Shown here: positions 16,809 through 22,846 of the stretch, in pieces
Layout of the letters: each line of letters begins with the position of its first letter
Position numbering within the stretch: the first letter of the stretch is position 1
DNA from: Stappia sp.
Lineage (GTDB): Bacteria; Pseudomonadota; Alphaproteobacteria; Rhizobiales; Stappiaceae
Assembly: GCF_048268045.1 (NCBI RefSeq)
Contig: NZ_JBLWWG010000010.1
Coordinates: forward strand, 47,288-111,287
DNA length: 64,000 nucleotides
Reading direction: 5' to 3'
Notes under the pieces: generated by a model
Seen by the model: only the letters and a program-made list of their open reading frames with translations
Told to the model about the DNA's origin: nothing
Database searches by the model: none
Translations under genes and position numbers: made by a program

Positions 16809-18263
16809 TCAGGACGACGGCGCGTCGCCGGTCTCCCGCTCGCTCCACATCTGGATACGCCGATAGATCGTCGAGGGACTGACCCGAAGCGCCTGGGCGG
16901 CGCGTGGGATGTTGCCACCGCATTGCTCGATGGCGCGTTCGATGGTGCGGCGAATGACCGTTTCCAGCGGTTCGATGGCATGCCGGGCGGACAGGCCTGA
17001 CGGCTCCGCATCGACGATGGGCGGCGCGCCGGCCGACTGCAGGGTGGCCAGCGGAGCGACGACGGCCCTCGCCGCCTCTCTGACCAGGGCGGGCAGCATG
17101 GTTTCATCCATGACCTCGCCATCGTTGAGGACGACGGCCCGGCGGATGGCGTTTTGCAGCTGTCGGATGTTGCCTGGCCAGTCGCAGGCAAGCAGGGCCT
17201 GCTCGCAGCTTTCGCTGAAGCTGCGAAACCGCTTGTCATCCTCCGCCGAAAAGGCGGCCAGAAACTCCCGCGCGATCAGCAGTACGTCGTCCTCACGTTC
17301 GCGCAAGGGAGGCAGCTCCACCGGAACCACATGCAGGCGGTAGAAAAGGTCCTCGCGAAAACGCCCTTCCTCGACCTCGACCTGGGGATTGCGGTTGGTG
17401 GCGCAGACGATGCGCACATCGACCGGCCGCACGGCATCCTCGCCCACCCGCTGCACCGAGCGCTCCTGGAGCACGCGCAGCATCTTCGACTGCAGCTCGA
17501 GGTCCATCTCGCAAATCTCGTCAAGAAACAGCGTCCCCCCGTCGGCGGACAACATCGCTCCCAGCCTGTCCGACACAGCACCGGTGAAAGCGCCGCGGCC
17601 ATGGCCGAAGATCTCGCTTTCGAGCATTCCCTTCGGAATGGCCGCGCAATTGATCGTGATCATCGGCCCCTTGGCCCTGCGGCTCATGCCATGGATCGCG
17701 GCGGCACACAGCTCCTTCCCCGTTCCGCTCTCTCCGGTGATGAAGATCGTGGCGTTGGTGGGGGCGGCATTGTGCAGGATGCGATAGACGGTGCGCATGG
17801 CGCGCGAACGGCCGATCATGCCGGCCAGACGGTCCGGCTCCTCGCTTTCGTCGGCCTCCGCAGCCAGTTCCTCGATGCGGTGAGCCATGCACACCCGGTC
17901 GAGAGCATTGCGCAAGGTGACCCTCAGCCGCTCGGCGGAAAACGGCTTCATGATAAAATCGTAGGCCCCCTCGCGCATGGCCTCCACGGCCATTTTGACA
18001 GACGCCTGACCGGTGACGAGCACAACTTCACAAGCCGCCCGGCGGCGCTTGATGTCACGCATCAGGTCGAGGCCGTTCCCATCGGGAAGGTTGACATCGA
18101 TGACGATGACCGAAGGACAGGCCTCCTCGACCGCCTCCAGGGCGCTGGCGCAGTCAGGCGCGATCAGGACCTCGACGTCCTGCGGCTCGAGATAGGCGCG
18201 ATAGGTCTCGGCGAGGGCACGTGTGTCCTCGACCAGCAAGACCTTGGGCCGGTTCGCTGTCAT
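16809..18263 (-). CDS. Sigma54-dependent response regulator, LuxO-like (REC-AAA+-HTH)
   Basis: LLVEDT and VIDVNLPD REC motifs; ITGESGTGKELC, GAFTGA, LDEICEMDLELQ, RFREDLFYRL, WPGNIRQL; Fis-type HTH at the C-terminus. Confidence 0.9.
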   Translation of the reverse strand: MTANRPKVLLVEDTRALAETYRAYLEPQDVEVLIAPDCASALEAVEEACPSVIVIDVNLPDGNGLDLMRDIKRRRAACEVVLVTGQASVKMAVEAMREGAYDFIMKPFSAERLRVTLRNALDRVCMAHRIEELAAEADESEEPDRLAGMIGRSRAMRTVYRILHNAAPTNATIFITGESGTGKELCAAAIHGMSRRAKGPMITINCAAIPKGMLESEIFGHGRGAFTGAVSDRLGAMLSADGGTLFLDEICEMDLELQSKMLRVLQERSVQRVGEDAVRPVDVRIVCATNRNPQVEVEEGRFREDLFYRLHVVPVELPPLREREDDVLLIAREFLAAFSAEDDKRFRSFSESCEQALLACDWPGNIRQLQNAIRRAVVLNDGEVMDETMLPALVREAARAVVAPLATLQSAGAPPIVDAEPSGLSARHAIEPLETVIRRTIERAIEQCGGNIPRAAQALRVSPSTIYRRIQMWSERETGDAPSS

Positions 18264-18539
18264 CCCCTTCAAAAACCACCCCTGTCGGCGGACGCCCGCT
18301 TTCTCGTGCGGTCAGCAAGGACCAGCGCCTGGCGCGGGTCTCGAGACGAGCCATCCATGTTTCTACCGGATTACCCAGGAAGCCGAAATTCCCAGTTTGA
18401 CTATATAGCCATGCGTTTCCTCCGCGCGCCGATGCCCTGATCGCAAGCCAACTCCCGAAATCGTGCCCGAGAAGGCATGCCACCCGGCAAGGCCAACAGC
18501 TTGCGCTAAGGCAAGTATACGCCAGAAGAGCCCGAATAA

Positions 18540-18643: not shown

Positions 18644-20770
18644 TCACGGCTGCTGCCGCGGATCCGTTGGGGCGAGATCATCGGGAAGAACGATACCTGC
18701 CCGGGCGAGATTGTCGCGCAGGGACGCCCAGACCTCGGGCGAACCGATGGGAAGACAGTTTCCGATCCAACGAAAGATATCCGCGTTCTCCGGCCGGCTC
18801 GGCAGCACCCATCGATCGCGGATACGCTTGCACAGGCGCTCCCCCTGCTGCCGCGCGCCCTCGACGCCGCCCGTCATGACCAGCGCGGCCAGATGCCAGG
18901 CATCGCCGATGAGACAGGCGCCATGCGCCTTTTCCTGGGCCCGCACAGCCGCAGCCCCCTCCCCGCACAAGACCATCGTTCCCGCGAAGAGGTTCCACTG
19001 CAGCGGAGAAAAGGGAAGCCCGCGGTCGCGCACCCGAAGCGCGGTGCTGAGCGCCTCCGCCGAATGCCCGTTGCAGGCCAGGCCATAGGCAGCGGACAAT
19101 GCGACCCAGGGGTCGCTGTCGTTCAGATCGAGCGCCTTTCGGTGATGGCGTTCGGCAATGCCGAACCGGCGTTGCAAGGCGGCGCTCCAGGAAAAACAGG
19201 AATGGGCGCGGCAATCGAACGGATCGAGGCCGAGCGCGGTTCCCGCAAGTGCGCTCGCGCGCTCCAACGAGCGATGGGAGTAGCTCGTGCCCGGAAACAC
19301 CAGGTGACGTGCATTGATAACCTGGGCGAGGCCCGAGTAAGCCGGAGCGTAGCGCGGATGTTCCTCGATCAACGCGCTGAAGACCGCCTCGGCACGCAGC
19401 GAATCCTCGATACGCATGGAATTCAGCAGTCCGCGCCCGCGAAGCAGCCGGTCGTAAACATCGAGTTCCGCGTCCGGCAGGTTTGCCAGTTCCTGAAGCC
19501 GCTCGGCCGAGATATGGGCATTGGTGGCCATGGCGATCTCGCCGAGCAGCGAAAGCTGGCGCGACATCAGGACATCAAGAGGCACTTCCGAAGTCCGCCC
19601 CCAGACATAGTGCCCCGTCCTGTGGTTCTTCACGGTCACCGTATAGGCAGCCCGGTCCTCGGCGCGCATGGCGGCGACGCCGATGCGGTAGACAGGGATG
19701 CTCGAGCGTTCCAACTCGTCATCCACCGTGTCGATCACCGTCCACTCGCGAAAGCGAAGGAGGCGGGCAACGAGGTCGTAGCGGAAAACCTCCGCGAGCG
19801 GTCCGTCGCCGCCGGCGCGCATCACCGCGCTCACCGGATCGACCACCACGACAAGATGCCCGTCAGCGCTACGGCCGGCGGAAGACCGGCCAGCCGGCCG
19901 CGCAGGAGGAAGAGGCGCGGCGGCGGGAGCCTCCGCGAACCCCGGCTGCCCGGAGGCGGTCGCCTCCGACGCAAGATCGAAGTGTTCGGGGAAGCGCCCG
20001 AGCTTAATCTCGACGATCAGTGCCTGGGTCTCGCTGGAGGGTTGGGTGTCGAATTCCTCCTCCAGGACATTCCAGAGGTCTTCGTAGGCGCGAAGCGCCG
20101 TCGCATAGTCCCCGTTCGCGGCACGCGCCCTGATGAAGGCACGGCAGGCCGGTTCGTGAGTCGGATCCAGATTGAGAAGCGCGAGGGCCGCATCCTCGAC
20201 CCGACTCAAGTCGCCGTCGACCGCCGCGATGCGAGGTTCCAGCAGGCCGCGCAACTCGTCGTGCAACTGTTGTCGCCGCACCCGCAGCCATGCGGTGAAC
20301 GGTTCCGCCAGCACCTCCCCTCCCTCGAACAACCGCTCGGACAGCCGCCGCTCGTGCAGCAGGCGCGGAGGCAACCTGTCTCCCGGCTTGAGCAGGACAT
20401 CGACGTCCGTTCTGACCCGCGCCAGGTCGACGGCGATCGCCTGCTTGTCACTCGACAGTCCGTCGAAACCAAGGGTTTCGAGATTGCGCCGGAGGATCAG
20501 CAGCGTCTGACGCAGCGAGGACCGCGCGTGGTGCTCCGAACTGTCTTCCCAGAACAGATTGGCTGCGGCTTCTCGCGGCAAGTGGCCGTCCGGCGACAGG
20601 CACAGGCGCGCCAGCAGCCCCTCGGCCTTGCGCGAGCGGAAGGTGACCGGAATTCCGTCAACGGCAAACCGGGGAGCGCCAAGCACGACGACATCGAGCA
20701 CCGGCCCACTGCGAGCGGTTTCAGAGCGCGACGGCGCGCCCTGCGCGCGTCTGGTTCGCCGGTCTTCCAA
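18644..20770 (-). CDS. SARP/BTAD-domain transcriptional regulator with C-terminal TPR region
   Basis: FRSRKAEGLLARL, LFWEDS.EHHARSSLRQTL and LLNLDPTHEPACR..YATALRAYE motifs; TPR-like helices. Probable TTG start at 20770 behind a GGGGG SD. Confidence 0.82.
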   Translation of the reverse strand: MEDRRTRRAQGAPSRSETARSGPVLDVVVLGAPRFAVDGIPVTFRSRKAEGLLARLCLSPDGHLPREAAANLFWEDSSEHHARSSLRQTLLILRRNLETLGFDGLSSDKQAIAVDLARVRTDVDVLLKPGDRLPPRLLHERRLSERLFEGGEVLAEPFTAWLRVRRQQLHDELRGLLEPRIAAVDGDLSRVEDAALALLNLDPTHEPACRAFIRARAANGDYATALRAYEDLWNVLEEEFDTQPSSETQALIVEIKLGRFPEHFDLASEATASGQPGFAEAPAAAPLPPARPAGRSSAGRSADGHLVVVVDPVSAVMRAGGDGPLAEVFRYDLVARLLRFREWTVIDTVDDELERSSIPVYRIGVAAMRAEDRAAYTVTVKNHRTGHYVWGRTSEVPLDVLMSRQLSLLGEIAMATNAHISAERLQELANLPDAELDVYDRLLRGRGLLNSMRIEDSLRAEAVFSALIEEHPRYAPAYSGLAQVINARHLVFPGTSYSHRSLERASALAGTALGLDPFDCRAHSCFSWSAALQRRFGIAERHHRKALDLNDSDPWVALSAAYGLACNGHSAEALSTALRVRDRGLPFSPLQWNLFAGTMVLCGEGAAAVRAQEKAHGACLIGDAWHLAALVMTGGVEGARQQGERLCKRIRDRWVLPSRPENADIFRWIGNCLPIGSPEVWASLRDNLARAGIVLPDDLAPTDPRQQP

Positions 20771-20974
20771 GCTATTTCCCCCCGCCGCCCGTAATTCGCC
20801 GCGAGCCTGGAACACCCGGTCGACGTTGCCTCATCCCGGTCCGGCGGCGCACCTGCCAAATGCGACCTTCCACCCAAGGCTGAGAAAATCACGGACAGAT
20901 AACGCTAATTGGTGTTGCATCCGAATAACAAGCAATTGTTGCAATCGGTATCGACTACAAGCGCCTATGCGACC

Positions 20975-21222
20975 GTGGGGAGACCGGCCCCGCAGTCATA
21001 AAAGACATATGAATCAGTTCGTTGCCTTCTCCTTCAGGAGGAACGACGCGTTCTTGGGTCGGCCGCTCGGCCAACCCCGCACAGGTGCCATCGAAACGGC
21101 AAGGTCGAGGCCGGCCTCGCTGAGAGGCGTCCGTTTCGATGCACGGCGAGCTTTGGAAGCCTTTTCGGTTTCAGCTCACACGTGACCCAACTGGGCCGGG
21201 GAATTTCCCCCGGCCCGTTTTT
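20975..21222 (+). ncRNA. Candidate structured sRNA A (several hairpins ending in an intrinsic terminator); family unassigned
   Basis: Stems CATCGAAACGG/CCGTTTCGATG (21089-99/21131-41), CGAGG-ccgg-CCTCG, GGGTcGGCC-gctc-GGCCaACCC and GAGCT..AGCTC. No annotated plus-strand gene here. Confidence 0.45.
21193..21222 (+). terminator. Rho-independent terminator
   Basis: GGGCCGGGG-aatttc-CCCCGGCCC-gTTTTT. Confidence 0.75.
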
Positions 21223-21334
21223 CCCGCCACCAGCACAAGAGGCTGGAACGGGGGGGCTTGCGGAAAATGCCCTTCATCGCTTTGGGTAGGGAGCAAGCCG
21301 CCAGAATTGTGGGGAGCAGAATCGCCCGACGACG

Positions 21335-21350
21335 CGGCGCTGTAATTGCG
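21335..21350 (+). promoter_or_regulatory. Candidate sigma54 -24/-12 promoter
   Basis: CGGCGC-TGTAA-TTGCG: GG-N10-GC with TT before GC; deviates from TGGCAC-N5-TTGCW at 3 positions. Confidence 0.4.
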
Positions 21351-21408
21351 CATTCGACGGGCAACGGGTTTTCAGTAGATGCTTTTGGGAGGAAATTCAG
21401 AAGGATCG

Positions 21409-21447
21409 GCCACCCGCACGCGATACTCGCGGCGGGTGGTCTTTTTT
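21409..21447 (+). terminator. Rho-independent terminator, U-tract on plus strand (may also serve the convergent MCP)
   Basis: GCCACCCGC-a-CGCGA-tac-TCGCG-GCGGGTGGT-c-TTTTTT. Confidence 0.75.
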
Positions 21448-21475
21448 GTCGAACTGACTGCCCCGGGCAATCGCC

Positions 21476-22846
21476 TCAGGCCACGTGCACTTTCGTGTCC
21501 TCGCCCTGCAACCGTCGAATATCGGAGAAGAAGTCGCGGATATCCTTGGTGATGGACTTGGCGTGCCCCTGAAGGTCGGACGAGACCACAAGGAAGCTTG
21601 TGGCCGCACCCTCCGTCTTCTCGATCGCATCGCTCACACTCGAGACATTTCGGTTGAGAGTGGAGGTTCCCTGGGCCGCCTGCTGCACGTTGATCGAGAT
21701 CTCGCGCGTCGCCGCACCCTGCTCCTCGACCGCGGCTGCAATTGCAGCGGTAAGACTGTCGATCTCGCCCACAGTCGAGGCAATCGACCCGATGGTGGCA
21801 ACCGCGCGCGTCGTCGCGGCCTGCACCTCCGACACCTGCTTGGCGATGTCCTCGGTTGCCTTGGAAGTCTGGCCGGCCAGCTGCTTCACCTCCTGCGCGA
21901 CGATGGCGAAACCGCGCCCCGCCTCGCCGGCGCGCGCCGCCTCGATGGTGGCGTTCAGCGCCAGCAGGTTGGTCTGCTCGGCAATCGCCTGGATCAGGCC
22001 GATCACATCGCCGATCTTCTGGGCGGTGACCGAGAGCAGGCCGACCTCGGAAGAGGCGTTGTCCGTGATTCCGGTGGCGCGGCGGGCAACGTCGGAAGCT
22101 CCGGAGATCTGACGCGCGATCTCGACGATCGAGCTGGCCAGTTCCTCGGCCGCGGCCGCAACCGTCTGGACGTTGCAACTGGTCTGCTCGGACACCGCAG
22201 AGGCGGACAGGGCCTCCTCCGACGCGGCGTTTGCCACAGCCTTCAGATTTCCGGCGCCGGCGCCGACCTGATCGGCGGTATTGCCGACGGCCTGCAGCGC
22301 ACCATCCACCTTGACCTGGAAGCGGTCGACAGCTTCCTTCAGGGTCTTGGTCCGGTTCTCCTGCGCCTCCATCAGAATCTCTTGATAGGTGGAGATCGCA
22401 TAGTCGAGATCGAGCATGACCGCACGGTTCATCGCCTGGATCGTCACCGTCAGGCGCTTCGGCGACAAGCGGTACTTTCGCACCACGATCGCGACAAGTT
22501 CGTTCAGGACAAACTGATAGCCGGCGATGTACCAGCGCGGCTCGAGGCCGATACGGACGTGAGCCCGCCCGATCCGGTTGATGCTGTCGACATATTCCTG
22601 GTCGAACGCGGCGTGAAACAGACGCCCCCAATGGGCTTTCTGCGCGCTCTCCAGCGAGGCTTGTCGGCTGCCGACCAGATTCTTCAACGCAGGCTCGGAC
22701 ATGACGTGCTTGTAAAAGCGACGCAAAATGTCGTCCAGATGCGCTTCCACCACAGGCCAGAGCGCGCGAAGGCAGTCTCTGGTTTCATCGGTAATGCAGG
22801 CAAAGGAGACGCGACGCCCGACTTGCTCAATTTCTGTTTTCGACAT
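21476..22846 (-). CDS. Globin-coupled (HemAT-like) soluble methyl-accepting chemotaxis protein
   Basis: [22 protein letters not shown] globin motif; [30 protein letters not shown] signalling hairpin; no TM segment. Confidence 0.93.

Follow-up and report, generated by a model that had tools for sequence, protein, structure and literature searches.

A structured, lineage-restricted small RNA gene with a conserved repeat box beside a SARP-family activator gene in Stappia

The window analysed here, that is, the whole stretch of 64,000 nucleotides of Stappia sp. DNA, contains an intergenic gap of 660 bp, flanked by two minus-strand genes (18644-20815 and 21476-22846), which holds a stand-alone, structured, non-coding RNA gene with its own terminator that is not the leader of a 3' gene. 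This RNA represents a genuine, uncatalogued and lineage-restricted family of structured sRNAs, confined to marine Stappia and Hongsoonwoonella. The RNA probably spans positions ~20927-21222 of the plus strand, with a length of ~296 nt that is predicted from the layout of the promoter. As for its function, the reading that we favour, by a modest balance of probability, is that of a SARP-activated regulatory RNA of ~296 nt acting in trans via a single-stranded 13-mer, ACGUGACCCAACU. In what follows, G000 denotes the genome of the window, and other G numbers denote its relatives.

Architecture, covariation and distribution of the RNA

The conserved unit of the RNA is a 3' module of 150 nt (21073-21222), whereas the 5' region (20927-21084, plus strand) varies by species in both sequence and length, from ~90 to 240 nt, and carries hairpins that are specific to G000 and show up in its MFE folds, including those at 20975-20993 and 21025-21041. 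The preliminary description of this DNA had delimited a unit of ~245 nt at 20975-21222. The stems of this unit are present, but those of its 5' part are not conserved, and the 5' end of the transcript probably lies, by analogy of promoter layout, at ~20927, namely, ~48 nt upstream of the start then given at 20975. Similarly, the anti-SD-like tract that was stressed in that description, CCTTCTCCTTC (21025-21035), is indeed paired, in the MFE fold, with GGAGG (21037-21041), yet the resulting CCUUCUCC/GGAGG hairpin belongs to the variable 5' part, is specific to G000 and is absent from relatives.

Within the conserved module, the first element is a long stem, P1 (21085-21099/21131-21144, plus strand), of 14 bp with one bulged C, which encloses a CGAGG/CCTCG hairpin (21106-21119, plus strand); both had been recognized beforehand as a bulged 14-bp stem around a smaller hairpin, and both were found. 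In most species, the hairpins P2 and P3 make up the interior of P1, and P3 has the loop UUCGCCC; in G000 itself and in G007, the genome closest to it, this interior has shrunk to the single hairpin that occupies the place of P2 and P3. P1 is followed by the hairpin P4 (21146-21179, plus strand), composed of a base (21146-21152/21173-21179), an apical stem (21156-21161/21167-21172) and a U-rich loop (21162-21166), which also appears in the MFE fold of G000. The 13-mer ACGUGACCCAACU (21180-21192, plus strand) lies between P4 and the terminator, and it is unpaired in the consensus when P4 forms. Its sequence is identical in 11 out of 15 Stappia genomes, with four showing a C to U change at one position, and it is kept in Hongsoonwoonella; we consider it a candidate seed or protein-contact site. 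The module ends with an intrinsic terminator on the plus strand, detected by a terminator scan, which has a G+C stem of 9-10 bp and a loop of 6 nt (21192-21217), followed by a tail of five U residues that reaches 21222, as anticipated by the GC-rich, U-tailed terminator of the initial account. P1, P4 and the terminator are included in the MFE fold of the ~296-nt stretch.

The folding energy yields similar z values for both strands, namely, -3.9 for the plus and -4.2 for the minus strand, and was therefore not used as evidence. Since folding energy alone does not decide, it is comparative covariation that marks this RNA as more than a chance fold. BLAST comparison with relatives revealed two conserved blocks (20885-20921 and 21161-21228), separated by a variable stretch. 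A structure alignment of the 3' 150-180 nt was constructed from 15 Stappia genomes, with the following results. First, standard pairs are found in 92.8% of the 543 helix cells, and in only 26-41% of them after sliding the 3' partners by one to three columns. Second, changes on both sides occur at 19 of the 37 pairs, a number matched by none of 500 shuffles. Third, RNAalifold, independently, reported 18 covarying pairs. When both genera are considered (22 sequences), 91.8% of the cells pair and 25 of the 37 pairs covary, although the 22-sequence alignment was fitted to the covariance model, which favours structure somewhat. Overall, ~92% of the helix cells pair, compared with 26-42% for slid partners.

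Covariation across these 15-22 homologues involves P1, the position of the inner hairpin, P4 and the terminator. In P1, both-side changes are seen in 10 of 15 pairs, with 93% of the cells paired, and 11 of its 12 inner pairs covary in the 22-sequence alignment. P4 shows compensatory changes among G000, G006 and the majority, and the terminator has 99% of its cells paired and three covarying apical pairs. Covariation in a collection of homologues, which the preliminary description had named as a check, is evident at 19 to 25 of the 37 pairs. Moreover, G-U cells number 39 and A-C cells 5, and this excess, together with the U tract on the plus strand, identifies the plus strand as the functional one.

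A covariance model built from the 15-genome alignment was used for the search of homologues. One copy each was found in 16 out of 16 genomes of Stappia (genus g1), and the RNA is also present in four out of four genomes of the genus that includes Hongsoonwoonella zoysiae, 'Stappia' albiluteola and 'S.' sediminis (g10). With this model, the RNA was found in none of 111 genomes from other genera of the same family, nor outside its own family in a 151-genome sample of the order. An exact-motif scan over ~185,000 species returned the same taxa plus chance matches, which fail the model. A second match in G008, scoring 31 bits, lies behind a coding region and was discarded as probably false.

Regarding known RNA families, Rfam 15 at gathering thresholds provided no family for positions 20700-21500, ar15/AbcR, ar45, Qrr and 6S included; the best sub-threshold scores were 22.9 against a threshold of 45 for RF_site4 and 17.6 against 40 for ar15, the latter mostly on the terminator. 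Likewise, ten homologous loci gave no relevant match to Rfam at gathering and permissive thresholds. The earlier failure to match this RNA to a riboswitch or an alpha-r family is therefore borne out by covariance models, as no family reaches its threshold, and what emerges is an RNA family with covariation across two genera that is lacking in Rfam.

The next gene 3' of the RNA (21476-22846, minus strand) encodes a protoglobin-MCP, namely, a HemAT-like chemoreceptor, which agrees with the previous remark that there is no plus-strand gene 3' of the RNA to be attenuated. In G010 and G015 the gene at this place is a different one, and the structure of the RNA is kept. A riboswitch or an attenuator of a 3' gene was rejected, given that a same-strand gene is absent and that the 3' genes vary among relatives. 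The locus thus has the attributes of an independent transcription unit, namely, a putative promoter of its own, a Rho-independent terminator and no conserved ORF.

The upstream repeat box and the SARP-family regulator

Two 11-bp direct repeats, AAATCACGgac (20886-20896) and AgATAACGcta (20897-20907), form a box on the plus strand (b1, 20886-20907), which we take as a putative SARP operator over the -35 position. The preliminary description was silent on this box, as well as on its obligate SARP neighbour. The repeats are followed by a gap of 7 nt and by the -10-like hexamer TTGCAT (20915-20920, plus strand), which predicts a start near 20926-20928; in Stappia, TTNNAT is found at a fixed distance of 10 nt past the core of the second repeat. 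The core AAATCACG-N6-ATAACG is kept in 21 out of 21 RNA-bearing genomes, from two genera, and the full box has a single occurrence in the G000 genome. No sigma-70 consensus promoter was found ahead of the RNA, and the only sigma-54 GG-N10-GC motif within 20600-21500 is the one at 21335, downstream of the RNA.

The arrangement of 11-bp repeats that lie over the -35 and end 6-8 bp before the -10 is found here as in afs boxes. The afs box of AfsR comprises 22 bp, with two 11-bp direct repeats that extend from -40 to -19 over a poor -35, and in each repeat the first 8 bp are the contact site of one SARP protomer (PMC10936776). It is by analogy with this layout that a start at ~20927, and with it an RNA of ~296 nt, is predicted. 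From co-location and repeat geometry, and by the same analogy, we infer that the box at 20886-20907 is the operator of the adjacent SARP activator.

The gene for this SARP-family activator (18644-20815, minus strand), which combines wHTH, BTAD and C-terminal TPR and has a Pfam BTAD match, probably has its true start near 20701. A BTAD-family profile searched against the PDB matched the DNA-binding domain of EmbR (2fez, E 7e-7) and the SARP domain of AfsR (residues 7-267; 8hvr and 8k60, E 1e-6 to 4e-6), and its C-terminal part matched TPR proteins. A cognate SARP-domain protein, of the OmpR-type wHTH plus BTAD kind, is accordingly encoded next to the box. In 20 out of 20 other genomes, the RNA has a SARP-TPR orthologue at its promoter side, so that the gene accompanies the RNA in all 21 loci. 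Within the family, SARP homologues were detected in three of three Stappia genomes, in three of three from the Hongsoonwoonella genus and in none of six from other genera.

Other genes of the cluster are less constant. In 15 of the 21 genomes, a SagD-type YcaO gene separates the SARP gene from the box, and it is missing at that position in G000, G007, G006, G004, G011 and G012; it has been lost from the region 20816-20884 in G000 and the five other species. Such a YcaO is absent from the entire G000 genome, and all six species keep the RNA and the SARP gene all the same. The LuxO-like sigma-54 response regulator gene (16809-18272, minus strand) has the same orientation as the SARP gene and is near the RNA in 14 of the 21 genomes. 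Its product has Vibrio LuxO as top NCBIfam match, with 560 bits against a family cut-off of 800, followed by AtoC with 395. No kinase gene was seen near it in the stretch examined.

Full-length homologues of the regulator, with 33-36% identity, are found in other Rhizobiales, mostly again next to YcaO. The exact pattern TCACG-N6-T[CA]ACG was counted 21 times in ten of these distant SARP-YcaO loci (288 kb of strand sequence), compared with 0.16 occurrences expected from the rate of the pattern in the G000 genome (Poisson 5e-37); in Stappia the second repeat is TAACG, not TCACG. The distant boxes are accompanied by a -10-like signal, whose final T falls 16 nt past the second repeat, as does that of TTGCAT in Stappia (+16). 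This enrichment, together with the shared -10 offset, makes the repeat a credible operator of the regulator family.

At least eight of the ten distant Rhizobiales loci (L134-L143) have a gene pair formed by a SagD-type YcaO and a SARP-TPR gene, and nine of the ten have from one to four boxes with exact TCACG-N6-TCACG, for instance at L135:7944 (+) and L138:6858 (+). The distant sites that were examined front genes for small proteins (84-185 aa), haem-peroxidase-like and amidase-like genes. Altogether, the SARP-YcaO boxes of these loci look like an undescribed regulon.

Further boxes were noted closer to G000. Genomes of the Hongsoonwoonella group have a second box (AAATAACGAAGAAATAACG), located ahead of an animal-haem-peroxidase-like gene (PF03098; L071:1858-3648 (+) and L072:1932 (+)) that sits between the SARP and LuxO-like genes; the loci of G015, G008 and G012 likewise contain homologues of this gene. 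In G000 itself, outside the window, a direct repeat, TATAACG-N4-ACATAACG, is located at contig position C11:132584 (+), with a hairpin, a Shine-Dalgarno (GGAGG) and an ORF of 66 codons (MNDTLEGTIDPAKELQ...) after it. This site may represent another target of the SARP regulator.

Mode of action and competing explanations

The mechanism that we propose has two steps. In the first, the RNA would be transcribed from an activator-dependent promoter, in which the two 11-bp repeats (20886-20907) replace the -35 at 7 nt from a weak -10, and to which the divergently encoded SARP-TPR protein would bind as a side-by-side dimer, in the manner of AfsR on the afs box. In this way, the RNA would serve as the local output of the cluster of this regulator, whose ancestral set may have included YcaO, SARP, haem-peroxidase-like and LuxO-like genes. 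In the second step, which is the weaker of the two, the RNA would base-pair in trans via ACGUGACCCAACU, with Hfq engaging the terminator and the U tail. A gene for Hfq is present in the G000 genome, in which a gene with a ProQ/FinO domain was not found. A conserved single strand followed by a terminator is the typical layout of pairing sRNAs, and this layout, with Hfq encoded, suits a base-pairing sRNA; typical Hfq sRNAs are smaller than ~300 nt.

Target searches with the 13-mer gave the following results. First, its complement, with up to two mismatches, is not found above chance in the G000 genome. Second, RNAduplex of the 13-mer against 4203 crude translation-initiation regions reached a minimum of -21.3 kcal/mol, and ten shuffled seeds gave -20.1 to -23.1, so that the duplexes predicted for the 13-mer are no stronger than those of the controls. 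Third, no conserved site for the 13-mer was found across genomes in the leaders of the divergent, HemAT-like, LuxO-like and SARP genes. Near-matches to the complement of the 13-mer do recur across the genus. Pairing of the 13-mer with the 3' strand of P1 was also considered and dropped, as the 13-mer is invariant and this strand varies.

SARP activators have been characterised mainly on antibiotic-biosynthesis and related protein-coding genes of actinobacteria. A broader proposal, which we advance tentatively and hold somewhat less probable than its opposite, is that in marine alphaproteobacteria a SARP has a structured RNA as its dedicated output, and that Rhizobiales also have an undescribed SARP-YcaO regulon, characterised by TCACG-N6-TCACG boxes, whose small protein genes have given way to this RNA in Stappia. 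One box and one neighbouring SARP gene provide the RNA family with a concrete regulator candidate, for which the comparative case is strong. If the SARP link is true, this would be, to our knowledge, the first sRNA under SARP control, and it would offer a way into an uncharacterised YcaO-SARP cluster with a wide distribution among Rhizobiales; should the link prove false, the RNA would be an ordinary lineage-restricted sRNA.

The competing explanation that survives best, albeit as an unlikely one, is that of a protein-binding RNA, acting as a sponge, scaffold or cofactor, with the invariant base of P1, junction and 13-mer as the recognition surface for a protein possibly encoded in the cluster, instead of an mRNA-pairing seed. 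The size of ~300 nt, the multi-branch core and the lack of a signal in the target searches leave room for such a role, and the core is made of several covarying helices with invariant junctions (GUGCC...CAC and GCG), in an RNA that is strictly tied to one gene cluster. However, the RNA carries none of the known protein-binding motifs, for instance the repeated GGA for CsrA, and the cluster genes other than SARP are dispensable, with YcaO absent from 6 and the LuxO-like gene from 7 of the 21 loci. In addition, pairing sRNAs typically have a terminator placed behind a conserved single strand.

A coding or dual-function transcript is far less probable, and we give it very little credit. According to this explanation, a 58-codon or other ORF would be translated, for instance into a precursor peptide for YcaO, which would fit with the SagD-type YcaO gene that abuts the box in 15 of the 21 genomes and with the small protein genes that are fronted by the same type of box in distant Rhizobiales. 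The ATG ORF of 58 codons (21009-21185) that had been reported to span the RNA is indeed present in G000, and it lacks a Shine-Dalgarno, as was also reported. Nevertheless, translation of 15 homologues in three frames revealed no conserved reading frame, and the ORF is therefore regarded as incidental; indels are not multiples of three, and only in some species is the frame up to a conserved TGA open, via different frames, with stops that break it in G010, G015 and others. Furthermore, the conserved part changes by compensatory base pairs, and G000 keeps the RNA despite the absence of such a YcaO from its genome. Thus, from the original suggestion of a trans-acting or dual-function RNA, the stand-alone non-coding gene holds, but dual function does not, as the 58-codon frame is lost in relatives.

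Equally improbable is a cis element whose product has no function, be it a structured terminator or insulator, or the remnant of a decaying gene. The position between convergent and divergent genes and the loss of the adjacent YcaO in G000 would suit such an element, but a promoter-like box is retained at constant spacing, the 150 nt of covarying structure are kept in two genera while the flanking genes change, and the G-U bias indicates one transcribed strand.

Finally, a Qrr-like sRNA switched on by the LuxO-like sigma-54 response regulator of the same cluster (16809-18272; 560 bits; near the RNA in 14 of the 21 genomes) is scarcely credible and largely refuted by the missing -24/-12 promoter, as there is no GG-N10-GC ahead of the RNA and the sole such motif, at 21335, precedes the second element described below, while the LuxO score is under the family cut-off, the RNA is found in seven genomes whose fetched stretch lacks a LuxO-like gene, and both size and structure are unlike Qrr, with no match to Qrr in Rfam.

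Related systems and a second downstream element

Read as a SARP-activated regulatory RNA, the locus resembles the AfsR-afsS system of Streptomyces in three respects, namely, a regulator with a SARP domain (wHTH plus BTAD) and TPRs, two 11-bp direct repeats over the -35 and a few bp before a weak -10, and a small adjacent gene as the dedicated output, which in our case is putative. In contrast, the output of AfsR-afsS is a protein of 63 aa and here it is a structured non-coding RNA, the host here is an alphaproteobacterium, and the regulator has no match to a NOD/ATPase domain. The sequence of the afs box is also unrelated to the repeat found here (A-AT[C/A]ACG), to which binding is proposed by analogy.

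With AbcR/ar15 (RF02345, clan CL00108), the RNA shares the condition of a stand-alone intergenic gene, with its own promoter (putative here), in an Hfq-encoding host, as well as a conserved single strand beside a Rho-independent terminator with a U tail. However, the ar15 score of only 17.6 bits, against a gathering threshold of 40, comes mainly from the terminator, and the CUCCCA anti-SD loops of AbcR/ar15 are missing from our RNA. Moreover, AbcR/ar15 is ~110 nt long, whereas the RNA described here has ~300 nt, a multi-branch core and a distribution limited to two genera. The likeness to the Qrr genes found beside luxO in Vibrio consists of a small RNA gene in a locus with a LuxO-like sigma-54 response regulator; unlike in Vibrio, a sigma-54 promoter is lacking, no relation is seen in size, fold or sequence, and the LuxO-like gene is dispensable for the RNA.

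Downstream of the RNA, a second small element was observed at 21335-21447 (plus strand), in which a sigma-54-like CGGCGC-N5-TTGC (21335-21349) is followed by a terminator (21424-21447). Most Stappia and Hongsoonwoonella genomes have a terminator-ended element at this position, with a sequence that differs by subgroup, and many of its copies share CATTGGCCTGGCGGCA upstream.
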